Origin: an uncultured bacterium
GTDB lineage: Bacteria > Methylomirabilota > Methylomirabilia > Rokubacteriales > CSP1-6
Assembly (NCBI GenBank): GCA_964637755.1
Contig: CAZWXA010000032.1
Span: 1 to 17,455, forward strand
DNA length: 17,455 bases
Direction: 5' to 3'
Below are positions 1,071 to 17,060 of the stretch, in pieces (within the stretch, counting starts at the first letter, position 1; each line of letters begins with the position of its first letter). The position numbers and the translations under genes were made by a program. Below the pieces are notes generated by a model, which ran no database searches, was not told where the DNA came from, and saw nothing but the letters and a program-made list of their open reading frames with translations.

Positions 1071-1397
1071 GCTCGAACTACTCCTTTCGGACGGACGCAG
1101 TGCCCCGATCTGACGAGTCTCCGCGCGCCGCTCGCCCGGCTGTTCGGCCAGCGCTCCGGTCGCGCGGGTGCCCGCACTCTAGCCGCTCGGCCCGGCGTGG
1201 TCAACGCCGATCACGCCGGGGTCGGCGCCGGGGCGCGCCATGCCGCGCTCGGAAGCGATGGTCCCGGAGGCCCGGGTGCACCTCGCGGCGATCGTTCCCA
1301 CCGGTTCCTCAGACCGGAACGCCCGGCGTTGACGACCGGTTGTACACTTGCGGGTGGCATCAGGCCGATCCCAACCCTAACCCGCACGAGGTCTCGC

Positions 1398-2360
1398 ATG
1401 CACAGACGCCTGCTCGCCGCACTCGTCCTTGTCGCCGCGCTCGCCGGGCCGCTCGCGAATGCCCACGCCGCGCTCCGCATCTTCGTGACGAACGAGAAGT
1501 CCGATGACGTCACCGTGATCGACGCCGCGACCGGCGTCGTGGCGAAGACGATCCCGGTCGGCAAGCGGCCGCGCGGCATCACCGTCAGCCCCGACCGCAG
1601 GCACGTGTACGTCTCCAACAGCAACTCGGACAGCGTGTCGGTCATCGACGCGGTGACGCTCGAGGTCGTCAAGACCGCGCCCGCCGGCCTCGACCCGGAA
1701 GGCCTGACCACGACCAAGGATGGCAAGGTCCTCTACGTCGTGAACGAGAACGAGCTGGCGGTGACGATGCTCGAGCTGCCGTCTCTCGGCATCCTGGGCA
1801 AGATCGAGATCGGCACCGAGCCCGAGACCGCGGTCCTCTCCCCGGACGGCAAGTGGGTCGCCGTGTCCCACGAGACCTCGAACGACATCTACGTGATCGA
1901 CACGGCGACGCGCCAGGTGGTCACGAAGATCCCGGTGCCGAAGAACCCGCGCGGGATGCGCTTCACGCCCGACTCCCGGCGCCTGTTCGTCGCGAGCGAG
2001 GGGGCGGACCAGGTCTCCCTCATCGACGTGGCGGGGTGGACGGTGGTGAAGTCGGTCGCCACGGGGGGCGAGCGCCCGGTCGACATCTCCATCTCCGCCG
2101 ATGGGTCGCGAGCGTACGTCTCGCACGGCAAGACCGGCGACATCCGCGTGCTCGACACCCGGTCGCTCGCCGTGCTCGCCACGATTCCCGTGGGGCCGCG
2201 GGCCTGGTGGACGGCGCTGACCCCGGACGGCGCCCTCCTCTACGTGACGGTCGGCCGCGCGAACGAGGTGGTCGCCGTGGATACCCGGTCGAACGCGGTG
2301 GCCCGCCGCATCAAGGCGGGCACGCTCCCCTGGGGGATCGCGATCGTCGACGCCCCCTGA
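1398..2360 (+). CDS. Secreted beta-propeller protein built from YVTN-family repeats (7-bladed lactonase-like propeller fold).
   Basis: The ATG at 1398 is followed by a signal peptide (MHRRLLAALVLVAALAGPLANAHA). Repeated ~40-aa units follow of the type RxxYVxNxxSDxVSVIDxxTxxVVKTIPVGxxPxGI (RIFVTNEKSDDVTVID, HVYVSNSNSDSVSVID, VLYVVNENELAV, DIYVIDTATRQVV, RLFVASEGADQVSLID, RAYVSHGKTGDIRVLD, LLYVTVGRANEVVAVD). The 5' part of ORF 159..2360 is an antisense shadow of the MR/MLE gene. Confidence 0.85.
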   Translation: MHRRLLAALVLVAALAGPLANAHAALRIFVTNEKSDDVTVIDAATGVVAKTIPVGKRPRGITVSPDRRHVYVSNSNSDSVSVIDAVTLEVVKTAPAGLDPEGLTTTKDGKVLYVVNENELAVTMLELPSLGILGKIEIGTEPETAVLSPDGKWVAVSHETSNDIYVIDTATRQVVTKIPVPKNPRGMRFTPDSRRLFVASEGADQVSLIDVAGWTVVKSVATGGERPVDISISADGSRAYVSHGKTGDIRVLDTRSLAVLATIPVGPRAWWTALTPDGALLYVTVGRANEVVAVDTRSNAVARRIKAGTLPWGIAIVDAP

Positions 2361-2547: not shown

Positions 2548-3468
2548 GTGCAGATTTCGTCTGGCCAGGCGCGCGGCGCCCGGCGCGCGGTGCTCGTCGT
2601 CCTCGGGATGCTCGTTGCCGGCGTCGCGTGGCTCAGCTTCTTCGCGGTCGAGACCGGCGAGATCGTGGTCGTCACCCAGTTCGGCGATCCCGTCCGGGTG
2701 GTGAGGACGCCCGGGCTCCACGTCAAGTACCCGTCTCCCCTCCAGAGCGTGTCGCGGTTCGACGGCCGGCTCTTCGCCCTCGTCCCGCCCTCCAGCGAGT
2801 TCCTCACTCTCGGCAAGCGGAACGTCATCGCGGCCGGCTTCATCCTCTGGCGCATCGCCGACGCGAAGCGGTTCATGCAGACGGTGTTCGACCGGACCGG
2901 CGCGGAGTCGCGGCTCGGCGACATCCTGTTCGCCGAGCTGGGCGCCGCGCTGGGCCAGGCGCCGCTGTCCGCCTTCGTCTCCGCGGTCCCCGGCGAGTAC
3001 CGGGCCGAGCAGATTCTCGCCGCCGTGACCCGGCAGTACCGGCAGACCGCCCTGCGCGATTACGGGATCGACGTCGTCGACGTCCGCCTTCGCCGGCTCG
3101 ACTTTCCCGAGCAGAACCGGCTCAGCGTGTTCGCCCGGATGAAGTCCGAGCGGGGCCGGGTCAGCATGAAGTACCGGTCCGAGGGCGAGGAGGAGGGCCT
3201 CAAGATCCGCGCGGCCGCCGAGAAGACGAAGAGCGGGATCCTCGGCGAGGCGTACAAGCTGTCGCAGAAGTCCCGCGGCGAGGGCGAGGCCCGGGCGGCC
3301 AGGATCTACGCGGAGAGCCTCGACCGGGCCCCGGCCTTCTACAGGTTCGTGCGCTCGACCGAGGCGGTGAAGAAGGCGGTGGACAAGGAGACGACGCTCG
3401 TGCTGCCCGTCGACTCCGAGCTGTTCGGGCTGCTCTCCGACAGCCGGTTCCGGTTCCCGGAGCCGTGA
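2548..3468 (+). CDS. HflC-like SPFH/band-7 membrane protein (paralog 1).
   Basis: GTG start with GGGGTG about 7 nt upstream, then an N-terminal TM helix (AVLVVLGMLVAGVAWLSFFAV). The C-terminal region FARMKSERGRVSMKYRSEGEEEG...ARIYAESLDRAPAFYRFVRSTEAVKK...LVLPVDSELF matches HflC (E. coli RMRAERE..HRSQGQEE..GEGDAEA..FYAFIRSLRAY...) and the second HflC at 6957. Confidence 0.8.
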   Translation: MQISSGQARGARRAVLVVLGMLVAGVAWLSFFAVETGEIVVVTQFGDPVRVVRTPGLHVKYPSPLQSVSRFDGRLFALVPPSSEFLTLGKRNVIAAGFILWRIADAKRFMQTVFDRTGAESRLGDILFAELGAALGQAPLSAFVSAVPGEYRAEQILAAVTRQYRQTALRDYGIDVVDVRLRRLDFPEQNRLSVFARMKSERGRVSMKYRSEGEEEGLKIRAAAEKTKSGILGEAYKLSQKSRGEGEARAARIYAESLDRAPAFYRFVRSTEAVKKAVDKETTLVLPVDSELFGLLSDSRFRFPEP

Positions 3469-3554
3469 GCCGGGTCGGCCGCAGCGGAGGGGGGTGAGAC
3501 CGGAAGGGCGCGCAGGACAAGGAGTAGACAACGACGTCCACTCTCACGATTCGC

Positions 3555-3560
3555 AAGGAG
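3555..3560 (+). promoter_or_regulatory. Shine-Dalgarno AAGGAG for the formamidase-family gene.
   Basis: AAGGAG lies 8 nt upstream of ATG 3569. Confidence 0.7.
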
Positions 3561-3568
3561 CCGCTGGC

Positions 3569-4603
3569 ATGTTCGACACTCGCATCCTGAAGCTCGTGAC
3601 CTTGGCGCTCGGAGCGCCGGTGCTGTTCGTGCTGCTGCTGGCCCTCCCGGCCGCGGCCGCGACCATCAGATACACCCCGCAGACGGTCTATTACACATAC
3701 TGCTTCTCGCATCCGCCCGCGGCCCGGATCGCGTCCGGCGACACGGTGATCACCAACACCCGCGACGCCTCGAACGATGCCTTCAAGCCGACGGACAAGA
3801 CGGTGGCGGCCGGCAACCTGGACCTCTCCCGGGTGAACCCGCAGACCGGTCCCTTCTACGTCGAGGGCGCCGAGCCCGGCGACACGCTGAAGGTCCACAT
3901 CGACAAGATCGGCTTCAACCGCAGCTGGGGCTGGGGCGGGGCCCTTCCGTACTTCGGGGCGCTCGCGCCCGAGTACAAGACCATGATGGTCACGCCGCCC
4001 GTGCAGGACACGCTCTTCGTTTGGCAGCTCGACGCGGCGCGCAAGATCGGCACCCTGAACATGCCGAAGAGCAAGATCGGCAAGGTCGAGATCCCGCTCC
4101 GTCCGTTCTTCGGGACGATCGGCACGGCGCCGTACGGCAAGGAGTGCATCAGCTCGCTGGTGCCGGGGACGCACGGCGCGAACATGGACTTCAACGAGGT
4201 GGTCGAGGGCGTCACGATGTACTTCCCCGTCTTCGAGAGGGGCGCGCTCTTCATGCTTGGCGACGGCCACGCGGCCCAGGGCGACGGCGAGATCATGGGC
4301 GCCGCCGTCGAGACGTCGTTCGACGTGACGTTCACCGTCGAGGTGATCAAGGGCAAGAAGATCGGCTGGCCGCGACTCGAGAACGACCGCTACATCATGT
4401 CGATCGGCAGCACCCGCCCGCTGATGGACGCGCTCAGGCTCGCCTGCTCCGACCTGATCAACTGGCTCGCCACCGACTACGGCTACGACAAGATAGACGC
4501 CTACCAGCTCCTCGGCCAGCAGGCCATGCTGAAGGTCGCCAACGTCGTCGACCCGCAGTACTCGGTGGCGTGCGCCATCGACAAGAAGTACCTGCCCAGG
4601 TAA
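3569..4603 (+). CDS. Acetamidase/formamidase (FmdA_AmdA) family protein with an N-terminal signal peptide or membrane anchor.
   Basis: MFDTRILKLVTLALGAPVLFVLLLALPAAAA is followed by GPFYVEGAEPGDTLKVHI, GTHGANMDF, LFMLGDGHAAQGDGEI and QYSVACAIDKKY. These are conserved blocks of the FmdA/AmdA fold. A strong RBS precedes the start and the stop is TAA at 4601. Confidence 0.8.
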   Translation: MFDTRILKLVTLALGAPVLFVLLLALPAAAATIRYTPQTVYYTYCFSHPPAARIASGDTVITNTRDASNDAFKPTDKTVAAGNLDLSRVNPQTGPFYVEGAEPGDTLKVHIDKIGFNRSWGWGGALPYFGALAPEYKTMMVTPPVQDTLFVWQLDAARKIGTLNMPKSKIGKVEIPLRPFFGTIGTAPYGKECISSLVPGTHGANMDFNEVVEGVTMYFPVFERGALFMLGDGHAAQGDGEIMGAAVETSFDVTFTVEVIKGKKIGWPRLENDRYIMSIGSTRPLMDALRLACSDLINWLATDYGYDKIDAYQLLGQQAMLKVANVVDPQYSVACAIDKKYLPR

Positions 4604-4701
4604 GGTGAACCGGGCAGCACCTTCGCGGTACCGGGGATCGGTCGCGACGCGGCCGGTCCCCGGCCTCGCTCCCGCCGGCCTGCGAACCGCCGAGGGCCGG
4701 C

Positions 4702-6960
4702 GTGACTGATTTCCTCTTCCAGGTCGCCTGGGAAGCCTGGTTCGTCCTCCGTGAAGCCTCCTTCTTCCTGCTCCTCGGCTTCGTCCTCGCCGGTGTGCTC
4801 GCCGTCCTCGTCCCGTCGGGGCTGCTCACCCGCTTCCTCGGCCGGGGCAAGATCAGGTCCGTCCTCTGGGCCTCGGCCATCGGCACGCCGCTCCCCCTCT
4901 GCTCCTGTGGCGTGCTGCCCACGGCCCTCGCTCTCTCGCGCCAGGGCGCCACCAAGGGGGCCACGGTCTCGTTCCTCATCTCGACGCCGGAGACCGGAAT
5001 CGACTCGATCGCGCTGAGCTACGCGCTCATGGACCCGATCATCACGGTGTTCCGCCCTGTCGCGGCCTTCGTGACCGCCGTCGTCGCGGGCATCGCCACG
5101 AACTTCCTGGGCCCGAAGGAGCCGCCCCCCCCGAGTGCTCCACCCGGAGAAGCAGAGACCTTGCCCCACCCTGGAGACTCGCTGCCCGGGCGAGAACCTG
5201 ACGCCCAGGGGGAGTCGACCGGAACCGACGCGCCGGGAGGCGAGGGGACGGAGCGGGCGGGACGTGATCCCGAGGGGCCGGGACACTCGCACGCGGGATC
5301 TCACGTCCCCCACCTGCCGGTGGACGAGCGTCCCGGCGGGAGGCTCCTCGATCGGTTCACGCGCGTCTTCGGGTACGCCTTCCGCGAGCTGCTCGACGAG
5401 ATCGCCCACTGGCTGGCCCTCGGTGTCGTCCTGGCGGCCCTCGTGTCGGTCCTCCTTCCCCCGTCCGTCATCGAGCGGTATCTGTCCGGCGGCCTCACCA
5501 CGATGCTGGCGATGCTCGCCATCGGCATCCCGATCTACACCTGCGCGTCGGCATCGACGCCGATCGCGGCCGCGCTCGTCCTGAAAGGCCTGAGCCCCGG
5601 CGCCGCGCTGGTCTTCCTGCTCTCCGGCCCCGCGACGAACGTGGGCGCGATCGTGGTGCTCCTGAAGTTCCTGGGACGCCGCGTCGTTCTGATCTACCTC
5701 GCGTCGATCGCGCTCGTCAGCCTGCTCGCCGGGTATGCGCTCGACTGGGTCTACCGGACCTGGCAGGTGAGCCCGGCCGCGAGCTTCGGGAAGGCCTCCG
5801 GTTTCGTCCCCGAGCAGGTCAAGGTCGCTGCCGGCGTGCTGCTGATCGGACTGCTCCTCGTGAGCTTCTGGCGCGCGCCGATCCCCGGGGAGTGGCTGCG
5901 CGTGCGCGACTGGCTCCACGCGGTGACCGGCGTGCGCCTGACCGCTCGGCGGCTCGCGGCCGCCACCGCCGCCTTCGCCGGCGCGCTCTACCTCGGCAGC
6001 GGGGTGTTCACCGTCGAGCCCGGGGAGGTCGCGCTGCGGACGCGCTTCGGCCGCCTCGTGGGCGCTCCACTCGAGCCCGGGTTCCACCTCCGCCTGCCCT
6101 GGCCCGTCGAGGCGCACCGGGTGCTCCAGCGCGAGCGCATCCGCCGGATCGAGGTCGGGTTCCGGAGCGCGCCGCGGCAGGACAGCGTCGAGCGCGCGTT
6201 TGCCCAGGGGCGACTCACGCTCGCCGGCCCCGGCAACCCGGTGCCGCCCGGCGGGTCGACGGGGTTCTGGTTCCAGAAGGAGAAGGTCTCCGAGGAGTCG
6301 TTCCTGCTCACGGGGGACGAGAACATCCTCGACATCGCGTTCACGGCGCAGTACCAGGTCAAGAACCCGGTCGCCTACGCCTACGGTCTGGCGGATCCCG
6401 ACACGGTCGTGCGGAGCGTGACGGTCGCCGCCCTGCGGGCCGCCGTGGCCACGATGACCGTCGACGTGCTCTACACGAGCGGGCGCGAGGAGGTGGAGCG
6501 GAGGGTCCTGCGGGCGGCGCAGGAGTCCCTCGACGCCTACCAGGCGGGGGTGAGGATGCTCGCCGTCAGCCTGCTCAGCGTGCATGCCCCGGAAGAGGTG
6601 CACGCGGCATTCCGGGACGTGGCGAGCGCGCAGGAAGACAAGATCCTGATCGTCGACCGCGCCACGACGTTCGCGCAGGAAGCCGTCAACCTGGCGGACG
6701 GCGACGCCGCCGCCATGGTCGAATCGGCGCTGGCCTTCAAGGAACAGAAGATCCTGGAGGCCGAGGGCGACGCGTTCGCCTTCAGTCTCCGGGAGAAGGA
6801 ATACCGCCGCGCGCCCGGCGTGACCCGCTTCCGCCTGCAGGTCGAGGCCCTGGAGGAGGTCCTGCCGGCCGCCCAGAAGATCCTGCGACCCGGCCGCGCC
6901 GATCTGAAGGACTTCGACCTCTGGCTGCTCGAGCCGCCGGGGGCGAAGAAGGGCCGGTGA
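4702..6960 (+). CDS. Fusion protein: a two-repeat ArsP/DUF318-type permease (residues ~1-360) joined to an HflK-like SPFH domain (C-terminal ~390 residues).
   Basis: The GTG start is followed by hydrophobic repeat 1 with GTPLPLCSCGVLP (ArsP-like CxC motif). A Pro/Glu/Gly/His-rich loop follows (PPPPSAPPGEAETLPHPGD...GPGHSHAGSHVPH). Repeat 2 carries IPIYTCASASTPIAAAL...LLSGPATNVGAIVV. A TM helix (AATAAFAGALYLGSGVFTV) and an HflK SPFH domain follow (VEPGEVALRTRFGR...FRDVASAQEDKI...EAEGDAFAF...RFRLQVEALEEVL). There is a single uninterrupted frame of 752 codons. Confidence 0.75.
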   Translation: MTDFLFQVAWEAWFVLREASFFLLLGFVLAGVLAVLVPSGLLTRFLGRGKIRSVLWASAIGTPLPLCSCGVLPTALALSRQGATKGATVSFLISTPETGIDSIALSYALMDPIITVFRPVAAFVTAVVAGIATNFLGPKEPPPPSAPPGEAETLPHPGDSLPGREPDAQGESTGTDAPGGEGTERAGRDPEGPGHSHAGSHVPHLPVDERPGGRLLDRFTRVFGYAFRELLDEIAHWLALGVVLAALVSVLLPPSVIERYLSGGLTTMLAMLAIGIPIYTCASASTPIAAALVLKGLSPGAALVFLLSGPATNVGAIVVLLKFLGRRVVLIYLASIALVSLLAGYALDWVYRTWQVSPAASFGKASGFVPEQVKVAAGVLLIGLLLVSFWRAPIPGEWLRVRDWLHAVTGVRLTARRLAAATAAFAGALYLGSGVFTVEPGEVALRTRFGRLVGAPLEPGFHLRLPWPVEAHRVLQRERIRRIEVGFRSAPRQDSVERAFAQGRLTLAGPGNPVPPGGSTGFWFQKEKVSEESFLLTGDENILDIAFTAQYQVKNPVAYAYGLADPDTVVRSVTVAALRAAVATMTVDVLYTSGREEVERRVLRAAQESLDAYQAGVRMLAVSLLSVHAPEEVHAAFRDVASAQEDKILIVDRATTFAQEAVNLADGDAAAMVESALAFKEQKILEAEGDAFAFSLREKEYRRAPGVTRFRLQVEALEEVLPAAQKILRPGRADLKDFDLWLLEPPGAKKGR

Positions 6961-7853
6961 CCCCGCTCCGCCGGACGCTCGCGGTCTCGGTCGCCCTCCT
7001 GCTGGGGCTCGCGCTCTGGTCGTCCTTCATGGTCGTCGACGTGACGGAGTACGCCATCCTCACGCGCCTGGGGAGGGTGGTCCGCGTCGTCAGGGAGCCG
7101 GGCCTCGGCGTCAAGCTCCCGTATCCCCTCGAACGGGTGATCCGCCTGGACCGGCGCCTGCTGACCTTCAAGCCCGGGAGTGCCGAGTACCTGAGCGACG
7201 ACAAGAAGAATCTCGTGATCCACAGCCTCGTGACCTGGCGGATCGCGAACCCGGAGCGGTTTCTCGCGACGGTGGGCGGGCGAGCGGCCGCCCAGGAACG
7301 GGTCGCCGATCTGGTGCTCACGAAGATCGGCGCCGTCGTCGGCAGCCATCCCGCCTCGGCCCTCGTCGGGGTCGATGGGCAGGCCTCGCGGTTCAGCCAG
7401 GTCATGGACCGGATCCTGACGGAGGCTCGCGACAGGGCGCTCGCGGATTACGGCGTCGACCTCGTCGACGTCCGGCTCCGCCAGCTCGGGCTGCCGGAGC
7501 AGAACCGGGCCAACGTCTTCGCGCGCATGCAGGCAGAGCGGGGCAAGATCGCGATGAAGTACCGCTCCGAGGGCGAGCGAGAGTTCAAGAAGGTCGTCGC
7601 CCAGGCCGAGCACGAGAAGACGCGAACCGTGGCGGAGGCGTACCGCGAGGCGGAGCGGGCCAAGGCCGAAGGGGACGCCCAGGCCATGCGGATCTACGCC
7701 GAGGCCTTCGGCAAGAACCCCCAGTTCTACAAGTTCCGGCGCACCCTCCAGGCCTACGAGAAGATCCTCGACGCCAACACCACCGTCTTTCTCCCGGCGG
7801 ACGCGGAAATCTTCCAGATCCTGAACAGCCGGAGATCCGGCGTGGGGAAGTAG
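6957..7853 (+). CDS. hflC: HflC (SPFH/band-7 protease-modulator subunit), paralog 2.
   Basis: The GTG at 6957 overlaps the upstream stop (GTGA), which implies translational coupling. An N-terminal TM helix is present. The translation includes RLGRVVRVVREPGLGVKLPYP...FARMQAERGKIAMKYRSEGEREF...AEGDAQAMRIYAEAFGKNPQFYKFRRTLQAYEKIL...VFLPADAEIF. The upstream part of ORF 5892..7853 is out-of-frame shadow. Confidence 0.85.
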   Translation: MTPLRRTLAVSVALLLGLALWSSFMVVDVTEYAILTRLGRVVRVVREPGLGVKLPYPLERVIRLDRRLLTFKPGSAEYLSDDKKNLVIHSLVTWRIANPERFLATVGGRAAAQERVADLVLTKIGAVVGSHPASALVGVDGQASRFSQVMDRILTEARDRALADYGVDLVDVRLRQLGLPEQNRANVFARMQAERGKIAMKYRSEGEREFKKVVAQAEHEKTRTVAEAYREAERAKAEGDAQAMRIYAEAFGKNPQFYKFRRTLQAYEKILDANTTVFLPADAEIFQILNSRRSGVGK

Positions 7854-7856
7854 GCG

Positions 7857-8921
7857 ATGGACCCGCGAGGCGAGGACTCCCGAGGGGAATCCGCAGGCGG
7901 GACGCCGGACGCCGCTGGCGCCGGGGGGCCGGCGTCCAGGGGGCCGGAGACCGGCCACCCGGTGCCGGGGACTCCGGAGGCCGGGCGGCGCTCGCGGCTG
8001 ACCCGCTACGTCTCCGGCCGCAGTGGCCGATGGCTCGCCGGGCTCGGCGCCCTGGTCGTCGCGGGCTACCTGCTGACCGGCGTCTTCACGGTGGCCGCGG
8101 ACCAGCAAGCGGTGGTGCGCCGGTTCGGGCGGGTCGTGGGCCGCCTCGGACCCGGCATCCACTACCGCTTCCCCCGGCCCGTGGATCGGGTCGACGTTCT
8201 CCGCACCACCACCGTCATGAAGACCGGCGTCGGGTTCGAGCTGCCGGAGGGCGAGGGGCAAACCGTGACCGGCATGGAGATCATGACCGGCGACACCAAC
8301 ATCATCAGCGTGGCACTGGCGCTCCAGTACGTCGTCCGCAACCCGGCCGCGTTCCTCTTCGAGGTCGAGAACCCGCCGGCCCTCATCGGCAGCGTGGCCG
8401 AGTCGGTGCTGACGGAGACCGTTCTCGGCATGCCCGTCGACGAGGTCCTCACCACCGGGCGCCTGGCGATCCAGGATCGCGTCAAGGTCCGCACCCAGGC
8501 GATCCTCGACCGCTACGGCAGCGGTGTCCTGCTCACCTCCGCCAGCATCATGGCGATCACCCTCGACAGCTCGGTGGCCCAGGCCTTCCAGGACGTCGCC
8601 AACGCGGGCGCCGATCGCGAGCGCAAGATCAACGAAGGCCGCGCCTACGCCAACGACCTCCTGCCCAGGGCGCGGGGCGAGGCCCGCTCGACGGTGCTCG
8701 CCGCCCAGAGTTACCGGGATCAGCGGGTCGCAGAGGCCGTCGGCAACACCACGCGCTTCCTCGACCTGCTCGCCGAGTACGCGAAGGCGCCCGAGGTCAC
8801 CCGGACGCGCCTCTACTTCGAGGCGATGGAGAAGATCCTGCCCCGGGTGAAGAAGTACGTCATCGATTCCGAGCACGGCCAGAAGCCGGTCAATCTCCGC
8901 CTCAGCCCGCCTCAGCCGTGA
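7857..8921 (+). CDS. hflK: HflK (SPFH/band-7 protease-modulator subunit).
   Basis: ATG lies 3 nt after the hflC stop, with GGGGAAG as RBS. A disordered N-terminal tail is followed by a TM helix (LAGLGALVVAGYLLTGVF) and an SPFH domain. The segment ...NEGRAYANDLLPRARGEARSTVLAAQSYRD...RFLDLLAEYAKAPEVTRTRLYFEAMEKILP closely matches E. coli HflK (YANDILPRARGDA...ERLYIETMEKVL). Confidence 0.85.
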   Translation: MDPRGEDSRGESAGGTPDAAGAGGPASRGPETGHPVPGTPEAGRRSRLTRYVSGRSGRWLAGLGALVVAGYLLTGVFTVAADQQAVVRRFGRVVGRLGPGIHYRFPRPVDRVDVLRTTTVMKTGVGFELPEGEGQTVTGMEIMTGDTNIISVALALQYVVRNPAAFLFEVENPPALIGSVAESVLTETVLGMPVDEVLTTGRLAIQDRVKVRTQAILDRYGSGVLLTSASIMAITLDSSVAQAFQDVANAGADRERKINEGRAYANDLLPRARGEARSTVLAAQSYRDQRVAEAVGNTTRFLDLLAEYAKAPEVTRTRLYFEAMEKILPRVKKYVIDSEHGQKPVNLRLSPPQP

Positions 8922-9064: not shown

Positions 9065-9289
9065 ATGCCCGACGAGTCGTCCGACCAAGCCGCCGAGCGG
9101 CTGCGCCTCGCGCTCGAGCTGTGCGCGGTCGGGGAAGCGATGATGCGCCAGCGACTCCGGCGCGAGCATCCCGATGCCGACGAGCCGGAGATCGAGCGCC
9201 GCCTGACGGAATGGTTTCTGGAGCGGCCCGGTGCCGAGGGCGGTGATGCCGTCGGCAGGCCGGTGTCGTGGCCGCGCCCGGATCGCTGA
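9065..9289 (+). CDS. Small hypothetical protein (~74 aa), a putative cognate partner (antitoxin-like) of the downstream nucleotidyltransferase.
   Basis: MPDESSDQAAERLRLALELCAVGEAMMRQRLRREHPDADEPEIERRLTEWFLERPGAEGG... is predicted helical and charged. The ORF overlaps the next gene by 22 nt. An alternative ATG exists at 9035. The rest of ORF 8030..9289 is an out-of-frame shadow of hflK. Confidence 0.5.
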   Translation: MPDESSDQAAERLRLALELCAVGEAMMRQRLRREHPDADEPEIERRLTEWFLERPGAEGGDAVGRPVSWPRPDR

Positions 9290-9885
9290 GCCGGGTCGAA
9301 ACCGCTCTCAAGCGGATCCAGGGCGACCTCGAGGGCCTCGACCGTCGCTGGGCGCTCCTGGGTGGCCTGGCGGTCTCGGCCCGGGCGGAACCGAGATTCA
9401 CGCGCGACGCGGACCTTGCGGTCCTCGTGGCCGATGACCGTGACGCTAAGCGGCTCGTGCTCGTGCTTCGGGATCGCGGCTACCGGGTCATCTCGGCGAT
9501 GGAGCAGGAGGCGACCGGGCGCCTGGCCGCGGTCCGGCTGGCGCCGCCGGGCGAGATAGAGCAGGGTGTGGTTGTCGACCTCCTGTTCGGGTCATCGGGG
9601 ATCGAGCCGGAAATCGTCATGGCGGCGGAGCCGCTCGAGATCCTGCCCGGGCTCCGCGTTCCCGTCGCTCGACTTGGCCATCTGCTCGGGCTCAAGCTGC
9701 TCGCGCGCGACGACCGCACTCGGCCGCAGGACCGCGCCGATCTCGTCGCCCTCCTCGCCCGGGCGGATCGGGCGGCGATCGATCTGGCTCGGAACGCGCT
9801 CACGCTGATCACGAACCGCGGCTTCCATCGCGGGCGGGACTTGCTCGCCGATCTCGACTCACTGATCGCCCAGGGGAGCGGGTAG
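9268..9885 (+). CDS. Nucleotidyltransferase-fold protein, AbiEii/MNT-like (type IV TA toxin-like family).
   Basis: LLGGLAVSARAEPRFTRDADLAV fits the GG[ST]A..R.T.D.D(l) nucleotidyltransferase signature. It is followed by VVVDLLFGSSGIEPEIV...LPGLRVPVARLGHLLGLKLLARDDRTRPQDRADLVAL. The GTG start overlaps the upstream small ORF. Confidence 0.55.
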   Translation: MAAPGSLSRVETALKRIQGDLEGLDRRWALLGGLAVSARAEPRFTRDADLAVLVADDRDAKRLVLVLRDRGYRVISAMEQEATGRLAAVRLAPPGEIEQGVVVDLLFGSSGIEPEIVMAAEPLEILPGLRVPVARLGHLLGLKLLARDDRTRPQDRADLVALLARADRAAIDLARNALTLITNRGFHRGRDLLADLDSLIAQGSG

Positions 9886-10075: not shown

Positions 10076-10984
10076 ATGGCGACGCTGCTCGCGCCCGCGG
10101 GAAGCCCGGAAGCCCTGGAAGCCGCCCTCGATGCCGGCGCCGATGCGGTGTACGTGGGCTTGAAGGGCTTCAGCCGGGGCGGGGCCCGGGGCGAGCTCGA
10201 CTGGGACGAGCTGGCCCGGGGCGCTGGGCTCTCGGCCAGCCGGGGAGCGGAGACCCAGGTCGCTCTCAACACCATCCCCAGGCCGGGGGAGCGCGCCCGG
10301 CTCCTCGATCAGGTCCCCCGCCTGCTCGCCCTGGGCGTGCGGACCCTGATCGTCAACGACCCGGGAATCCTGGCGGCGCTCCGCCGCGAGTTTCCCGGGC
10401 TCGCGCTGACGGCCAGCATCGGCTGCGGCGCCCAGACCGAGGCGGACGTGGCGTTCTTCAGGGAGATCGGGGCCGGCGCGGTGGTGCTGCCGGGGACGAT
10501 CGGCCCCGCCGAGGCGGAGGCCTGCTGCCGGGTGCGAGGGATCGCCGTCGAGATCATGCTGCACATGGTCGAGGAGTTCGTGCTCCTCGGGAAGTGCTGG
10601 ATGCCGAGCTACGTCCATCTGAAACCCACGGCGATGCCCGGAGCGGGCGAGGGGGCGCTGCGCCAGACCGGCAGCATGAAGCGCGGCGGCGTCGGCGCGT
10701 GCTTCAGGATTTGCCAGGAGCCCTGGCGGCTTGAGAATGCCCGCGGACTGACGGCGGAAGTGACGTTTCCGAGCCGGCAGCTCAGCCGGCTCGACGACGT
10801 GCGGGGATACCTGTCGGCCGGTGTCGCGGTGCTGAAGCTCCAGGGCCGGAGCCTCCCGCCGCACCTGCTCGGCCCGCTGGTGGCACGATACCGCCGCGCG
10901 ATCGACGCCGCGCTCGGACAGGAGCCCCCCCCCGACTTTCCGGAGCCGGCGCTCCTCCCGTCGTGGACCGTGGTGGGACGTTGA
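10076..10984 (+). CDS. Peptidase U32 family protein (paralog 1; UbiU-like with a variant Cys pattern).
   Basis: MATLLAPAGSPEALEAALDAGADAVYVGLKGF is the hallmark U32 N-terminus. The Cys-containing blocks are SIGCGAQ, EACCRV, LLGKCWMPSY and GACFRICQEP. The terminal LKLQGRS motif is present. A TTG at 10037 is an alternative start. Confidence 0.8.
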   Translation: MATLLAPAGSPEALEAALDAGADAVYVGLKGFSRGGARGELDWDELARGAGLSASRGAETQVALNTIPRPGERARLLDQVPRLLALGVRTLIVNDPGILAALRREFPGLALTASIGCGAQTEADVAFFREIGAGAVVLPGTIGPAEAEACCRVRGIAVEIMLHMVEEFVLLGKCWMPSYVHLKPTAMPGAGEGALRQTGSMKRGGVGACFRICQEPWRLENARGLTAEVTFPSRQLSRLDDVRGYLSAGVAVLKLQGRSLPPHLLGPLVARYRRAIDAALGQEPPPDFPEPALLPSWTVVGR

Positions 10985-11934
10985 CCGCATTCGAGCTCAA
11001 CACCTCGATCTCGAACCTCGGAGACCTGCGCGCCTCCGATCTCGGTCCCTATGATGCCGTCTACCTCGGCAACATCTTCTGCCGGCTCTACGAGGCGAAC
11101 TTCCTCGAGCGGCCGGCGGACCTCGGGGAGGGCCTGCGCATCGTGCGGGATCAGGGCAAACGCGCCTACCTGACCACCTACGCCGCGCCGCGCAACGACT
11201 TCCTGCCCCGGCTGCGGAAGGTGCTCGAGACGGCGGCGGCCGAGGGGGCGGAGGCGGTCGAGGTGCACAACCTCGGCGTCCTCAAGATCGTTCACGACGA
11301 GTTCCCGGGGCTGCCGGTCCACGTGGGGGGCTTCGCCAACGTGTACACCGACGCGGGCGCCGAGGTCCTCAAGGGCTTCGGAGCGGCGCGCATCACCCCC
11401 AACTACGAGCTCCACCTCGACGAGGTCGACCAGATCGCGCGCGACTGCGGGATCGCCATGGAGCTGCTGGTCCACGGGAAGATGCCGCTCGGCGTCTCCG
11501 ACTATTGCTTCCTGCTCGAGTACGAGGACAAGTGGGGCATCAGGTGCCCGGACCTCTGCCAGCAGGACCTCTTCCTCCGCAAGGAGGACTGGGGCATGAA
11601 GTCCGTCGGCAAGGGCGTGCTGAGCGGCAAGGACGTCTGCATGCTCGACCACCTGGCTCGCCTGCTCGGCGGCGGCCACCGCCATTTCAGGATCGAGGCA
11701 GTCTCGGAGACTCCCGCGTATCGCCACGAGGTCGGCCGGGTCTACCGGGAGGCGCTTGGGCAGGCGCTGTCCGGCGAGTACCGGCAGGACGAGACGTGGT
11801 GGGAGACCGTGCGGAGGCACTCGCGGCTCGGCCTCTGCAACGGCTTCTACTTCGGGACGAGCGGCATGGATTACCTGGGTGCCGGACCGGGCGCCGCGGC
11901 CGCCTTCCTCCAGATGCCGCGGCCGGACCCATGA
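10963..11934 (+). CDS. Peptidase U32 family protein (paralog 2; UbiV-like).
   Basis: YDAVYLGNIFCRLYE is similar to UbiV ADVIYLGEAVCSKR. SDYCFLLEYEDKWGIRCPDLCQQD gives C-x12-C-x3-C, the same pattern as the UbiV Fe-S ligands. A GTG at 10963 (22-nt overlap) or a TTG at 10981 (TTGA overlap) indicates coupling to paralog 1. Confidence 0.8.
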   Translation: MDRGGTLTAFELNTSISNLGDLRASDLGPYDAVYLGNIFCRLYEANFLERPADLGEGLRIVRDQGKRAYLTTYAAPRNDFLPRLRKVLETAAAEGAEAVEVHNLGVLKIVHDEFPGLPVHVGGFANVYTDAGAEVLKGFGAARITPNYELHLDEVDQIARDCGIAMELLVHGKMPLGVSDYCFLLEYEDKWGIRCPDLCQQDLFLRKEDWGMKSVGKGVLSGKDVCMLDHLARLLGGGHRHFRIEAVSETPAYRHEVGRVYREALGQALSGEYRQDETWWETVRRHSRLGLCNGFYFGTSGMDYLGAGPGAAAAFLQMPRPDP

Positions 11935-12021
11935 CCGGAGCCGCTCGACCATGCACCGCTCGCGACGCGGGCGTTCGCACCCGCGTCGGACCTCGGGCCG
12001 CCAGCCGGGCGGCGGGCTGAC

Positions 12022-12032
12022 AGGAGAAGGGG
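12022..12032 (+). promoter_or_regulatory. Shine-Dalgarno AGGAGAAGGGG for U32 paralog 3.
   Basis: A purine-rich SD ends 6 nt before ATG 12039. Confidence 0.65.
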
Positions 12033-12038
12033 AATACC

Positions 12039-12998
12039 ATGCTCGAGTTGCTCGCTCCCGCCGGAAGCATCGCGATGGTGGAGGCGGTCGTGGCCAGCGG
12101 CGCCGACGCGGTCTACGTGGGGCCGCGCGGCTGGAGCCGCCGGCGTGACGCCTACGAGCTGGACGACGGGGACGTCAGGCGGTCCATCGAGATCTGCCAC
12201 GCCGGCGGTGCCCGGTGCCGCATCGCCGTCAACACGAACATGCAGTCGCGCGAGATCCCGCCGATGCTCGAGAAGATGGAGCGCTTCGTCGAGTGGGGGG
12301 CGGATGGCGCCATCCTCACGGACATCGGGGCGATCGCGGCGATCCACCGGCGCTTCCCCGCGCTGACGATCCACGCGAGCATCGGCGCCAACATCCTGAA
12401 CGACGAGGACGTGCGCTTCTACCGGTCGCTCGGCGTCTCCCAGGTGGTGGCGGACACGAAGCTCACGCTCCGGGAGCTGGCCTCGCGCAAGGAGCAGATC
12501 GACGTCGGAATCGAGGTGCTGATCCACGCCAACAAGTGCTACACATACCTCGGCAAGTGCTGGATGTCGCCCTATCACCACCTCGAGCGCACGACCGACG
12601 CCTCGGGCAAGGACCTCTTCAAGGGGAGCCCGAACCGCGGCGGTCTCGACTACCGGGTGTGCCTGGAGGCGTGGGAGCTGTACAGCGGGGACCGGCGCCG
12701 GGAGCCGCGCGTCGCCCTCAAGAACGACGCGTTCTTCCTGCTCGAGGACATCCCGCGGCTGATCGACCTGGGCGTCCACTGCCTGAAGGTCCAGGGCCGC
12801 GAGTACCCCGTCGACCTCGTGGGCCGGATGGTCCGGTTCTACCGCGACCTGATCGACGCCTACACCGCTCACCTGGAGGACCGGCCGTTCGATCTCGGGC
12901 CCTGGCGCGAGCGCCTGGCCTCGGTCGAGACGGCCCGTGACGGTGTCCGCACCGAGGGGACACGGCTCCTCTTGGTCGAGGCGCGCCGGCCTGCCTGA
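12039..12998 (+). CDS. Peptidase U32 family protein (paralog 3; UbiU-like).
   Basis: MLELLAPAGSIAMVEAVVASGADAVYVGPRGWS is the U32 N-terminus. HANKCYTYLGKCWMSPY gives C-x6-C as in UbiU (SLCIMSEGRCYLSSY), followed by YRVCLEAWE. The block HCLKVQGREYPVDLVGRMVRFYRDLID resembles UbiU KIEGRQRSPAYVSQVAKVWRQAID. Confidence 0.85.
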   Translation: MLELLAPAGSIAMVEAVVASGADAVYVGPRGWSRRRDAYELDDGDVRRSIEICHAGGARCRIAVNTNMQSREIPPMLEKMERFVEWGADGAILTDIGAIAAIHRRFPALTIHASIGANILNDEDVRFYRSLGVSQVVADTKLTLRELASRKEQIDVGIEVLIHANKCYTYLGKCWMSPYHHLERTTDASGKDLFKGSPNRGGLDYRVCLEAWELYSGDRRREPRVALKNDAFFLLEDIPRLIDLGVHCLKVQGREYPVDLVGRMVRFYRDLIDAYTAHLEDRPFDLGPWRERLASVETARDGVRTEGTRLLLVEARRPA

Positions 12999-13098: not shown

Positions 13099-13614
13099 CT
13101 ACTTCGCTGCCGCGTCCTTGAATGTCCGCACGTATTCCGTAAGCTGCCACCGCCTCTCTTCCGGCAGGAACATGCCCCAGGCCGGCATGCCGCCCCACCC
13201 GTTGCTGATCTTCCAGAACAGCTCGCCCTCCGTCTGCGCCTGGACGATCGGCGCGCCGATGTTGACTGCGGGAACGCCCTGCTTGAGGACCACGTATCCC
13301 TTGCCGTCGCCCGCTGGCCCGTGGCATCCGTCGCAGTAGATCTCGTAGGTGGTCTTGCCGGCCTGGATCACGTTGGGCGTGATCGGGAACGGCGGCTTCA
13401 GCTCCTTCGCCTCCGGCGGTGCCACCCAGCGCGTGATCAGGCACTTCGCATAGGCCTGGGCGAGCTCGGCGTTGTGGCAGGCGGTGCAGGCCAGGATCGG
13501 CTTGGCGCAATCCACCTCCCTGGCCGGAGTGTCCTGGGCGCGGCTCGCCGCCGCCGCCGACAGGGCGAGCACGGCCACCGCTGCCCCGACGATCCATCGA
13601 CCTCGACGTGTCAT
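13099..13614 (-). CDS. Di-haem c-type cytochrome with a signal peptide.
   Basis: Two CxxCH motifs (CTACH, CDGCH). The N-terminus MTRRGRWIVGAAVAVLALSAAAASRAQD is a signal peptide. The strong RBS AGGGGGAA lies 5-6 nt upstream of the start, on the minus strand at 13618..13625. Confidence 0.8.
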   Translation of the reverse strand: MTRRGRWIVGAAVAVLALSAAAASRAQDTPAREVDCAKPILACTACHNAELAQAYAKCLITRWVAPPEAKELKPPFPITPNVIQAGKTTYEIYCDGCHGPAGDGKGYVVLKQGVPAVNIGAPIVQAQTEGELFWKISNGWGGMPAWGMFLPEERRWQLTEYVRTFKDAAAK

Positions 13615-13738
13615 AAGTTCCCCCTTTGGCGGACCCTCGGGCCGCGCCGTCGCGAATTCGCGCGCCGGCGCCGGACGGTCGGCGCAGGCGCCAGTCTGCA
13701 CCCGCGGGCGCGCCCGCGAACATGATGTGGATCATAGC

Positions 13739-14495: not shown

Positions 14496-15139
14496 CTCAC
14501 CACATCTCCCTTGCGGAATCGCCCCGGCGCGGTGGCATGGCCCGGGGCCGGATGACCCGCGTCATGGCAACGCACCGGGAGACCATCGGGGCAGTTGCTG
14601 CCTTCCTCGAACTCGACAGCGACGCCGGACTCCCGTAGCGCCCGACGCGGTCTGGACCCCGGCCCCGTCGGGAAAGGGGGGCGTGCCGAATCCGCCGCAG
14701 GGGGTGCACGAGGGCCGCAGGGACGTCGCTGGGCCGGCCGGCTTCCGCGGCCGCACATCGCGTTGCGGTGGATGGCGCACTGGCCTCGGTCGGGCCTCGG
14801 GAAGTGGTGGCCCGTTGCGGATCGCCATCTGATATGCTGCGTCTGCGTCGCCTCCGGCTGGCTGCGGCCGCCTGGCGGCTGGGGAGCACGCGGCGGGCCT
14901 GTCCCCTCCGATACCCGGCGAGGCTGGGTGTCCGGGGCGCCAAGGGACCGCTCGAGCCAGGAGGGCCAACGGCGTGGGAGCCAGCGCAGTGTGGGAGCGT
15001 GAGAGCCTGGGGTGCGAGAGCGCCGCCCCTCTATCGCGACGGGCCGGCAAGGTGGAGCGACTGGCGCCGGAGGCGAGGGCGCCACCGGGTGGCCGCGACG
15101 TATCCCAGGAGTCTCTAATCTAATCTCTAAACGTTGCCA

Positions 15140-15146
15140 GGGGGAG
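15140..15146 (+). promoter_or_regulatory. Shine-Dalgarno GGGGAGG for the amidohydrolase gene, preceded by the AT-rich patch TCTCTAATCTAATCTCTAAACGTT (15112..15135).
   Basis: The SD ends 6 nt before ATG 15153. The AT-rich patch carries the overlapping repeat TCTAATC/TAATCTC. It is the only AT-rich element in about 1 kb and is a candidate promoter or operator. Confidence 0.55.
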
Positions 15147-15152
15147 GCAGGG

Positions 15153-16658
15153 ATGGGCACCTATTTCAGCGATCGGGAGTTCGCACAGGTCGAACCGGCG
15201 GAGAACGCGTTTCATTCGCCGATTCCCACGCAGGTCATCTCGAACGGGGAATTCAATCCCCCACCGCAGACGCCCCAGCAGAAGCAGGTCGAGGCCCGTA
15301 TCAAGGAGTTGGCCGACACCTATGGCGCGAAGCTGGGCATGGATCGCCGGCGGTTCCTCCAGACCGCCAGCGGCATGGCCGCGGCCTTCGTGGCCATGAA
15401 CAACGTGTTCGGCAAGGTGTTCGACGTCTCCGAGGCCGAGGCGGCCGACCCCATGGTGGCCCAGGCCCGCGCCGATGGGACCAAGGGCCAGTTCATCATG
15501 GACGTGCAGACGCACTGGGTGCGCGACGATTACAACCAGGAAGGGTTCGTCGGCTTCCTGAAGGCGGTCAACGACCTCGAGAAGAGCGGGCTCGACCCCA
15601 GCAAGATCAGCGTGTATAACGTCAAGTTCGAGAACTACGTCCGGCAGATCTTCCTCAACAGCGACACGGCCGTGACGGTGCTGAGCGGCGCGCCCTTCGA
15701 CGACAAATCGTGGGAGTTTCTGACGAACCAGGCGATCGCGGAAGGCGTCAGGATGGTCAACACGACCGCGGGCAGCACGCGGATCCTGGGGCATGCCGTG
15801 ATCAGGCCCGGGCAACCGGGCTGGATGGACGAGGTGGACCAGGCCCTGGCCGAGCGGCCGCCGGCCAGCTGGAAGATGTACACGATCGGCGACCCGCTCT
15901 CGGCCAAGACCAAGTACCCGTTCCGGCTCGACGACGAGAAGCTGATGTACCCGTTCTACGAGAAGGCCGTCAAGGCGGGGATCCGCACCGTGTGCATCCA
16001 CAAGGGGCTGATGCCGTCGGACTACGAGGAGAGCTGGGCCGGCGTCTGGAAGTACCAGACCGCCTGGGATCTCCCCAAGGCGGCCAAGGACTGGCCACAG
16101 ATCAACTTCGTCATCTACCACGGGTGCTTCCGTGCCTTCATGGACGCGCCAGGGGCGGCCCGCGCCGAGTTCGAGAAGACGGGTGACATCAAGTGGGCGA
16201 CCGAGCTCTCCCGGGTGCCCGAGAAGAGCGGCACCCAGAACGTCTACGCGGAGATGGGGACCAGCTTCGCCACCACTGCGGTGATCGATCCCCGCTTCGC
16301 GGCGGCGCTGCTCGGCACGTGGGTCAAGGGCCTCGGTTCGAGCAACGTGGTCTGGGGCACCGACTCGGTCTTCCACGGCTCGCCGCAGTGGCAGATCGAG
16401 GCCTTGCGCCGGCTCGAGATTCCGGAGGATATGCAGAAGAAGTGGGGCTTCGCACCGCTCGGCGGGGCCACCAGCGCGGCGAAGAACCAGATCCTCGGGC
16501 TCAACTCGGCCCGCATGTACAACATCAACGTGAGCGCCAGCTATCCACGGTTCACCGAGGACAAGTTCGCGCAGCTCAAGAAGGAATACCGGCCGGCCGG
16601 CACGCTCGACTGGCTGCGCGAGAACGCGGCGCACGGGTGGATCCGGCGGCGCGCGTAG
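15153..16658 (+). CDS. Amidohydrolase-2 (TIM-barrel metal-dependent hydrolase) family protein with an internal twin-arginine (Tat) motif.
   Basis: The Tat consensus [25 protein letters not shown] lies ~62 residues after the RBS-supported ATG. The barrel motifs include [23 protein letters not shown] and [14 protein letters not shown] (compare the FGSDYPH end motif of PF04909). A weaker alternative start is ATG 15339 (MDRRRFLQ). Confidence 0.7.
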
Positions 16659-16680
16659 TCACCCGCCCGAGCGCTCCCTG

Positions 16681-16710
16681 CCCCACCCGTCGCCGACGCG
16701 ACGGGTGGGG
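16681..16710. terminator. Perfect 12-bp-stem hairpin (CCCCACCCGTCG-CCGACG-CGACGGGTGGGG) 23 nt after the amidohydrolase stop.
   Basis: The stem and 6-nt loop were read directly. No U-run follows, so this is a terminator-like structure rather than a canonical intrinsic terminator. Confidence 0.4.
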
Positions 16711-16799
16711 CAAGGGGGGCCGCCCAACCGTCGCCTACTTGGCCGTCGCCAGGTAGGCGACGATCTTCCGGCGCACCGCGTCGCCCACTGCGATCTCTT

Positions 16800-17060
16800 G
16801 CGGCGCGGCCGCTGGTGCTCGATCGCGATGTCGGCGAGCGCATGGGCCATGTCGCGCAACTCCACCCAGCAGGTTGCATTCTCGAACCGCGACAGCCTCG
16901 GCGGCGAGGCCAAGGCCCTCCCGTCCAGCGGATCGCGCCCGACGACGAGCTTGTGCACCGGATCGTCGGCCAGCCGGGCGGCGTCGTTGCAGTCCGCGTA
17001 GCCACCCGCGAGGCCGAAGACGCGGCACCTCCGAGCGACTCGATGGCTCTTCTCTTTCAT
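16800..17060 (-). mobile_element. N-terminal remnant of an IS1380-family (DDE_Tnp_1-type) transposase, truncated and decayed.
   Basis: Minus-strand translation from ATG 17060: MKEKSHRVARRCRVFGLAGGYADCNDAARLADDPVHKLVVGRDPLDGRALASPPRLSRFEN. This matches the conserved IS1380 transposase N-terminal block (LALGYEDLNDHEQLRHDP...LASQPTLSRLEN). The frame then degenerates into Arg-rich nonsense and lacks a DDE core. The extent of the remnant is approximate. Confidence 0.5.

Follow-up and report, generated by a model that had tools for sequence, protein, structure and literature searches.

The 17,455-nt contig CAZWXA010000032.1 (assembly GCA_964637755.1), which derives from an uncultured bacterium of the Rokubacteriales and is here called the window, carries three consecutive genes, P1, P2 and P3, whose products belong to the peptidase U32 family (PF01136). 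We confirmed that they are a real three-gene U32 set in conserved order, a so far unstudied three-part form within the known iron-sulfur (Fe-S) U32 family. In our preferred reading, for which belief and doubt are evenly balanced, the products form a three-subunit [4Fe-4S] enzyme that modifies, and probably hydroxylates independently of O2, an acid that is activated with coenzyme A (CoA) and is probably aromatic. Gene structure, operon conservation, family membership, ligand conservation and neighbourhood linkage were established directly. We know of no enzymes other than U32 proteins that take the oxygen for hydroxylation from an organic donor (prephenate), and of just three substrates for them: intermediates of ubiquinone synthesis, one uridine in tRNA and one cytidine in rRNA.

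Real genes in the window, which has a G + C content of approximately 70%, were separated from spurious open reading frames by the G + C content at third codon positions (GC3). Three reading frames on the same strand between positions 10076 and 12998 have GC3 values of 0.89-0.95, which is of the coding type (Table 1). All three products exceed the PF01136 gathering score of 22.4 bits and contain no other Pfam domain, in line with the preliminary description of this DNA, which had reported three tandem U32 genes. The ATG start of P1 at 10076 agrees with homologues of 302 aa and with the N-terminus of Escherichia coli UbiU. The start of P2 is best placed at the TTG at 10981 and not at an upstream GTG, because the 56 orthologues begin with MNxFELNT, matched by (M)TAFELNT in the window, and because a Shine-Dalgarno-like GGTGGG (10972-10977) lies 4 nt upstream of the TTG. 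The start codon therefore overlaps the P1 stop codon (TGA, 10982-10984) as TTGA, and the start-stop overlap from which translational coupling of P1 and P2 had been proposed is thereby confirmed. The spacer between P2 and P3 is unusually long (104 nt, with a median of 24 nt in other loci). It contains a ribosome-binding site (GGAGAAGGGG) upstream of P3, as well as an inverted repeat that could be an element for mRNA processing or stability or a chance match. A scan for promoters and terminators found no terminator-like site around the operon, and Rfam, tRNA and promoter scans of the same region returned no more than a single weak promoter-like site, located within P1. P1 is a paralogue of P3 (35% identity, E 1.5e-48), and P2 is only 22% identical to either of them.

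To determine how far the arrangement extends, one genome per GTDB species was scanned with the P3 alignment as query, yielding 80 loci (designated by L numbers) from Methylomirabilota and Acidobacteriota (Thermoanaerobaculia, Terriglobales, Acidobacteriaceae, Sulfotelmatobacter and Korobacteraceae). Wherever a locus includes upstream DNA (73 of 73 such loci), P1, P2 and P3 follow one another in this order on one strand. The P1 stop and the P2 start are separated by a median of 8 nt across 76 loci, about 30 of which show a distance of 0 nt. Because the same order and tight spacing recur throughout, the arrangement is far beyond chance. On one contig, P1 and P2 are followed by a transporter gene and no P3 is adjacent. 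Identity to the window proteins across the loci is 47-76% for P1, 57-86% for P2 and 68-85% for P3. Triads at only 28-55% identity, again with a UbiV-type middle gene, occur in four more lineages known from metagenomes; the nearest from a representative library are L091 (Chloroflexota), L094/L095 and L096/L097. Three U32 genes in a row had been called unusual in the preliminary description; the row is real, but it is a fixed and widespread operon in two phyla that recurs in distant lineages. The closest named relatives are metagenome-assembled genomes (MAGs) of Methylomirabilota/Rokubacteria (candidate division NC10), and the closest genome locus is in a Candidatus Rokuibacteriota MAG (L011). 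In a plasmid collection, no homologue above 30% identity was present. Contigs with a triad whose P3 is 69-76% identical are also filed under a Thermoplasmata archaeon (L046), Patescibacteria (L073), Acidithiobacillales (L041) and Anaeromyxobacteraceae (L032/L037); these MAGs most likely reflect binning errors or recent transfers.

The relation to characterized U32 proteins was analyzed by aligning P1, P2 and P3 with UbiU, UbiV, RlhA and TrhP of E. coli K-12 and by scoring them against the curated NCBIfam equivalog models for UbiU (NF047963, cut-off 440 bits), UbiV (NF047965, 275 bits) and TrhP (NF011996, 534 bits). The best model is UbiU for P1 (92 bits), UbiV for P2 (77 bits) and TrhP for P3 (136 bits, with 121 bits on the UbiU model), all far below the respective cut-offs. 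The UbiU-model matches of P1 and P3 span only the N-terminal 180-190 residues, and on the TrhP model, where P1 and P2 each reach 72 bits, the matches of all three proteins are confined to profile positions 6-185 of 449. Identities to the four references in BLASTP are even, at 22-28%: P2 shares 25% identity with UbiV across 177 residues, a value that does not exceed those for RlhA and UbiU, and the best partner of P3 is TrhP (26%). The make-up of RlhA (a U32 domain with DUF3656 and a C-terminal Cys pair) is not found, since PF01136 is the sole domain; the proteins stop approximately 130 residues after the cysteine motif, and the C-terminal region of TrhP is not present in any of the three. The P3 family is compact, with a single full-length representative at 68% identity and the next at 43% or less among 1.84 billion representatives clustered at 50% identity. 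Since the scores lie below all of these cut-offs, the identities are even and the P3 family is compact, P1, P2 and P3 are, judged from their sequences, distinct subfamilies and not orthologues of any studied protein. The UbiU/UbiV assignment made earlier (77-121 bits against cut-offs of 275 and 440) is consequently not upheld, and the argument that a size of about 300 aa indicates the UbiU/UbiV type is not valid.

Neither the individual sequences of P1, P2 and P3 nor a P3 profile detected a relative among PDB sequences. P3, the only subunit modeled, gave an AlphaFold2 model with a mean predicted local distance difference test (pLDDT) score of 71.5 and a predicted template modeling score of 0.76, in which the barrel is confident. 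Foldseek ranked the U32 structure 5D88 first among the PDB matches of this model (E 9e-9 over 177 aligned columns), which supports a predicted TIM barrel for P3. No Fe-S-loaded U32 structure was found in the PDB, by sequence or by fold.

Cysteine conservation was assessed in 120 P1 homologues, the 56 P2 orthologues and 120 P3 homologues. As general family motif we took Cys1-x6-Cys2-x~15-Cys3-x3-Cys4 (with x3 or x4 as last gap), or a permutation of it, together with a Glu before Cys1. The UbiU-UbiV heterodimer binds its clusters through C169, C176, C193 and C232 of UbiU and C39, C180, C193 and C197 of UbiV (PMC6747719). Each subunit of the triad has four invariant cysteines, in a different permutation each, as in the Fe-S class of U32 proteins. 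In P2 these are C34, C176, C189 and C193 (C-xn-C-x12-C-x3-C), exactly the UbiV permutation; C220 and C286 are likewise invariant. In P1 they are C117, C174 (Cys2), C209 (Cys3) and C213 (Cys4), where the canonical Cys1 is replaced by a Glu (E167) and C117 stands in its stead. In P3, of which 138 of the 319 positions are at least 98% conserved, they are C167 (Cys1), C174 (Cys2), C208 (Cys4) and C248, and the Cys3 position is taken by an invariant Asp204. The UbiU ligand set (C169-x6-C176-x16-C193-x38-C232) is thus found in neither P1, which lacks Cys1, nor P3, which lacks Cys3, and the equivalent of C232 is absent in both. Glu159, which corresponds to the functionally important E161 of RlhA (PMC5727448), and Cys2 are invariant in P1, P2, P3 and the E. 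coli references.

Much of the cysteine pattern had been recognized in the preliminary description. The N-terminal Cys and C-x12-C-x3-C of P2 were correctly given as the UbiV pattern, the single Cys noted downstream of C-x6-C in P3 turns out to be two (C208 and C248), and for P1 the loss of the first Cys of C-x6-C and the pair C209-x3-C213 stand, while the CC pair (150/151) is only partly conserved and C117 had been overlooked. The alignment to UbiU and UbiV suggested there shows that P2 fits the UbiV set and that P1 and P3 do not fit the UbiU set. Among distant triads and relatives, the third-subunit versions in L009, L091 and L092 keep the canonical Cys3 and lack C248, and those in L094 and L096 keep Cys3 with C248 already present. 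As distant third subunits retain Cys3 and vary in C248, Asp204 is specific to the P3 family of the window, and the combined Asp204 and C248 state is derived.

For the neighbourhood analysis, genes around the triad in the 80 loci were called by GC3 and clustered into families. At least three of nine recurrent families lie within 10 kb of the triad in 37 of the 61 loci of at least 12 kb, and this linkage is seen in every taxon group, upstream or downstream and in rearranged orders. The recurrent neighbours comprise an AMP-forming ligase, two family III CoA-transferases, an Amidohydro_2 protein, a PAS protein with an alpha/beta-hydrolase, DUF4177 and several conserved small proteins without family match. 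An ABM protein, an enoyl-CoA hydratase, a FlK/4HBT (hotdog) thioesterase and a divergent MarR recur as well, and so do, in Thermoanaerobaculia, Pat/AcuB/AcuC-like regulators of acyl-CoA synthetases. The best PDB relatives of the ligase are the anthranilate-CoA ligase 4WV3 (2e-87) and benzoate-CoA ligases (approximately 1e-74), and against the benzoate-CoA-ligase family model TIGR02262 it reaches 335 bits. In L057 the triad is part of a same-strand operon of 16 genes, with the thioesterase on one side and the ABM, Amidohydro_2 and CoA-transferase genes on the other. In the very distant locus L096 (G + C 0.46) a ligase that is 51% identical to the recurrent AMP-forming family, three U32 genes, a 4HBT thioesterase, a deacetylase-family protein and a ferredoxin are found together, and in L092 a single P3-like U32 gene adjoins homologues of the recurrent CoA-transferase pair. 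That the association is kept while the U32 subunits diverge to approximately 30% identity is the strongest functional clue.

Several other genes near the triad deserve mention. Two conserved proteins are always located between the CoA-transferase pair and the ligase (L057 15522-16556 and homologues); one, of 125 aa, has an N-terminal CxxC...CxxC and the other, of about 213 aa, an invariant FYYS...C core. All 902 homologues of the 213-aa family in the database are named 'hypothetical', and the family has no Pfam or PDB relative; PDB profile searches likewise gave nothing for a neighbour family of about 460 aa, nor did Pfam and NCBIfam for several of the small neighbour proteins. An 87-aa CxxC...CxxC protein (zinc-ribbon/rubredoxin-like) always follows P3 within approximately 80 nt in L014 (11057-11317) and 11 other Methylomirabilales loci and has no counterpart in the window; roles as electron carrier or as assembly factor of the complex are conceivable. 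In L080 (11093-12163) and six other Terriglobales loci a ferritin-like di-iron protein, with a weak match to the ribonucleotide-reductase small chain, is encoded directly beside the triad on the opposite strand; it is conceivable that this protein serves as a counterpart to the U32 enzyme that depends on O2. L004 and L091 have multihaem cytochromes and a cytochrome b at a distance of a few kb from the triad. A menaquinone-type (men) pathway was considered for the neighbours and rejected, as the MenE-, MenB- and MenH/thioesterase-like matches are weak superfamily matches only and no homologue of MenD, MenF, MenC or MenA recurs.

From these observations we infer complex formation, cluster binding, hydroxylation chemistry, a prephenate donor and a CoA-thioester substrate. 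P1, P2 and P3 would be co-transcribed subunits of one cytoplasmic U32 Fe-S enzyme, each a TIM barrel that most likely binds a [4Fe-4S] cluster via its four invariant cysteines. P1 and P2 would be akin to the UbiU-UbiV heterodimer, given the UbiV ligand set of P2 and the translational coupling of the two genes. In P3, the paralogue of P1, the Asp at the third ligand position and the new C248 may free or generate an iron site of a special kind, and P3 would then be the likely seat of catalysis. If the chemistry follows that of UbiU/UbiV, TrhP and RlhA, a hydroxyl group would be introduced at an aromatic or heteroaromatic carbon without O2, with the oxygen coming from prephenate and two electrons passing through the clusters to an acceptor; a prephenate-dependent mechanism has been proposed for the whole U32 family (PMC10990095). 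The substrate would not be ubiquinone. The neighbourhoods elsewhere suggest that a carboxylic acid, probably aromatic, is handled as CoA thioester: it would be activated by the CoA ligase or a CoA-transferase, modified as acyl-CoA by the U32 complex and released by the hotdog thioesterase, under control of MarR. As a general idea, the hydroxylase module with an unknown substrate put forward in the preliminary description is the best reading at hand. More tentatively, and as a possibility we would not bet on, the triad may take U32 enzymes for the first time beyond the modification of quinones and RNA. It would be a heterotrimeric, three-cluster, O2-independent aryl-CoA hydroxylase at the core of an unrecognized ligase-U32-thioesterase route by which aromatic acids are transformed where soil is anoxic or hypoxic (in Acidobacteriota, Methylomirabilota and Chloroflexota), with the Asp-ligated or open-site [4Fe-4S] cluster of P3 as catalytic centre.

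A number of points weigh against the proposed CoA-linked hydroxylase. The neighbour linkage is missing in approximately 40% of the long loci, and gene calling by GC3 may have missed genes in genomes of lower G + C content. The window and its closest relative L011 contain none of 19 recurrent neighbour families, so that for the organism studied here the substrate link exists only via orthologues. Many of the neighbour proteins have no known function and the pathway cannot be named. The cysteine region of P3 is modeled with low confidence (pLDDT < 50 for residues 164-233), and spatial clustering of the ligands is not verifiable from the model. The function of the triad is read from sequence for every member, and in vitro proof that a U32 protein is itself the hydroxylase is still outstanding for the whole family (PMC10990095). 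Stoichiometric use of prephenate would also be expensive for a catabolic pathway.

The main rival is a different Fe-S reaction on the same class of substrate, in which the clusters would serve in substrate binding or supply low-potential electrons for redox or elimination chemistry on an acyl- or aryl-CoA, such as reductive dehydroxylation (IspH-like or 4-hydroxybenzoyl-CoA-reductase-like), dehydration or dearomatization. We regard this as rather unlikely. The CoA-thioester neighbourhoods fit it equally well, the Asp-for-Cys exchange in P3 suggests a site-differentiated cluster of the substrate-binding type, and both the ferredoxin adjoining the triad in L096 and the small Cys-rich protein after P3 in the 12 Methylomirabilales loci are consistent with it, as is the cost of prephenate in catabolism. 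A review also draws the analogy to IspH and calls the role of the U32 cluster unknown (PMC11574389). However, every genetically defined U32 role is tied to hydroxylation (PMC6747719, PMC5727448, PMC10990095), and no benzoyl-CoA reductase or downstream dearomatizing genes are among the recurrent neighbours.

That the triad is instead an RNA hydroxylase, a multi-subunit housekeeping counterpart of TrhP (tRNA ho5U34) or RlhA (23S rRNA ho5C2501), seems to us distinctly improbable. Bacillus subtilis is reported to employ two separate U32 proteins, TrhP1 and TrhP2, for tRNA hydroxylation. TrhP is both the nearest curated model and the best BLASTP partner of P3, whose identity between the two phyla is very high, and the surroundings in Rokubacteria-type loci (the window, L011 and L009) are unrelated and housekeeping-like. 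Against this, the scores are far below the TrhP cut-off, the proteins have neither the TrhP C-terminal region nor any other domain beyond PF01136, and the distribution is narrow (two phyla and scattered lineages) and not broad. Moreover, the triad lies repeatedly within acyl-CoA operons with a divergent MarR, distant versions included.

That the triad is a UbiU/UbiV-type enzyme with a third paralogue, hydroxylating ubiquinone or a different isoprenoid quinone without O2, is very improbable, and for ubiquinone this reading is largely refuted. It would account for the exact UbiV ligand pattern of P2, the UbiU and UbiV models as best matches of P1 and P2, the coupling of P1 and P2 as in ubiU-ubiV, and the di-haem cytochrome c gene that adjoins the triad in the window. 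The UbiU/UbiV label fails, however, on the curated scores, on the UbiU ligand spacing and on BLASTP, which shows no preference for UbiU or UbiV. The reported lack of an SCP2/UbiT gene in the window was borne out by domain searches, and within the 87 related loci covered UbiT was not found either. Nor is any Ubi/Men-type prenyltransferase, methyltransferase or decarboxylase among the recurrent neighbours. Outside Pseudomonadota, ubiquinone synthesis has been reported only for one Desulfobacterota class, and the host phyla of the triad are not among the known producers (PMC13386864). Finally, a triplicated collagenase-type (PrtC-like) U32 peptidase, suggested by the historical annotation of the family and by homologue names such as 'putative protease' and 'collagenase-like PrtC family protease', deserves next to no credence: the four invariant cysteines per subunit in Fe-S-type motifs agree with the earlier view that these are not collagenase-like enzymes, the barrel begins at the N-terminus, aligned to residue 1 of UbiU and so leaving no room for a signal peptide, the operon is shared with cytoplasmic CoA enzymes, and the characterized collagenases belong to other subfamilies (PMC5727448).

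Table 1. Positions of the U32 operon and of the other annotated features in the window.
Feature	Positions	Strand	Description
733-aa protein	159-2360		C-terminal YNCE-like seven-bladed beta-propeller; approximately 420 N-terminal residues without family match
HflC-like gene	2548-3468		
Formamidase-family gene	3494-4603		Between SPFH genes
SO_0444-type Cu/Zn efflux permease fused to HflK domain	4702-6960		752 aa
Band_7 gene	6960-7853		
HflK gene	7857-8921		
AbiEii-type nucleotidyltransferase toxin-like gene	9268-9885		Between HflK and the U32 operon
P1	10076-10984	+	U32 subunit, 302 aa; PF01136 74.4 bits
Translational coupling site	10972-10984	+	Shine-Dalgarno-like GGTGGG, then P2 TTG overlapping P1 TGA (TTGA)
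P2	10981-11934	+	U32 subunit, UbiV ligand type, 317 aa from TTG 10981; PF01136 122.9 bits
Inverted repeat (hairpin)	11963-11988	+	Perfect 9-bp stem, 8-nt loop, in P2-P3 spacer; no T-run after it
P3	12039-12998	+	U32 subunit, 319 aa, most conserved of the triad; PF01136 133.8 bits
Cytochrome c, convergent	13099-13701	-	Two CXXCH motifs (C72, C123), signal-like N-terminus
548-aa Amidohydro_2-containing protein	within 15012-17060		Lower-GC segment (0.65)
DDE transposase fragment	16659-17060	-	

The remaining genes of the window are not conserved beside the triad elsewhere, except for HflK and the 548-aa protein in L011. In that syntenic Rokuibacteriota locus HflK directly precedes the U32 operon, for which reason the AbiEii-like gene between them in the window looks like an insertion. 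The 548-aa Amidohydro_2 protein has a 69% identical orthologue near the triad of L011 and is unrelated to the recurrent Amidohydro_2 family. The convergent cytochrome c has two haem-binding motifs, in agreement with the di-haem protein previously reported, and was rejected as a partner of the triad since it is not conserved beside it in other genomes. Upstream, the accumulation of SPFH (HflK/HflC) paralogues at 2548-8921 is unusual, and the 733-aa propeller protein shows weak resemblance to models of a pyrroloquinoline-quinone-associated propeller and of the hydrazine synthase beta subunit. The segment 13739-15160 (G + C 0.75) has no clear coding-frame signal; a long minus-strand reading frame yields only fragmentary matches (an N-terminal piece of a Glu/Leu/Phe/Val dehydrogenase and a piece of an ABC substrate-binding protein), and these are probably decayed gene remnants.

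We found no publication on a three-gene U32 operon, including searches on U32 proteins in Methylomirabilis, Rokubacteria and Acidobacteria and on anaerobic aromatic CoA pathways. Most of the twelve U32 subfamilies are, to our knowledge, uncharacterized, and we know of no in vitro assay for any of them, one reason being that the substrates known so far are large RNAs or lipids that are awkward to work with. The association with CoA-ligase and thioesterase genes points to a substrate that is small and soluble; such a compound could permit reconstitution of U32 chemistry in vitro, and the three natural ligand permutations (C117 in P1, the N-terminal Cys in P2, Asp and C248 in P3) are ready variants for dissecting each cluster. 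Soil and peat harbour Acidobacteriota and Methylomirabilota in abundance, mostly as uncultured bacteria; if the substrate is indeed an aromatic acid, the triad would add an O2-independent hydroxylation route to carbon turnover.

Compared with UbiU-UbiV (E. coli YhbU/YhbV), the triad shares the U32 family, adjacent and coupled genes for different subunits of about 300 aa, the UbiV ligand set in P2, and the conserved Glu and Cys2; by analogy, [4Fe-4S] clusters and hydroxylation of the prephenate type would be the expected chemistry. It differs in having three subunits instead of two, at 22-25% identity and far below the cut-offs, in the ligand permutations of P1 and P3, in the lack of UbiT or ubi genes nearby in hosts that are not known ubiquinone makers, and in its association elsewhere with CoA-ligase, CoA-transferase and thioesterase genes. 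With TrhP (YegQ) and RlhA (YdcP) it has in common the U32 barrel, Cys1-x6-Cys2 (in P3) and the conserved Glu, and TrhP is the closest curated match of P3. In contrast to these single-chain proteins, the triad would be multi-subunit, lacks C-terminal extension domains, and has a narrow range and a metabolic, MarR-regulated context. The one solved structure of a U32 protein that the searches turned up, Mk0906 of Methanopyrus kandleri (PDB 5D88), resembles P3 in its TIM-barrel core; it is only 14% identical to P3, and the solved fragment is uninformative on the cysteine region.

A further parallel, in organization, is offered by CoA-dependent ring substitution, as in the dehalogenation of 4-chlorobenzoate by FcbABC and the conversion of salicylate to gentisate via salicylyl-CoA 5-hydroxylase. 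These routes follow the logic of ligase, modifying enzyme and thioesterase, which the aryl-CoA-ligase-like protein, the U32 triad and the hotdog 4HBT/FlK thioesterase would reproduce, and some triad loci also encode a crotonase-family protein. The modifying enzyme would here be a U32 Fe-S complex, and not a crotonase-type dehalogenase or a flavin- and O2-dependent hydroxylase; the analogy is one of organization only.

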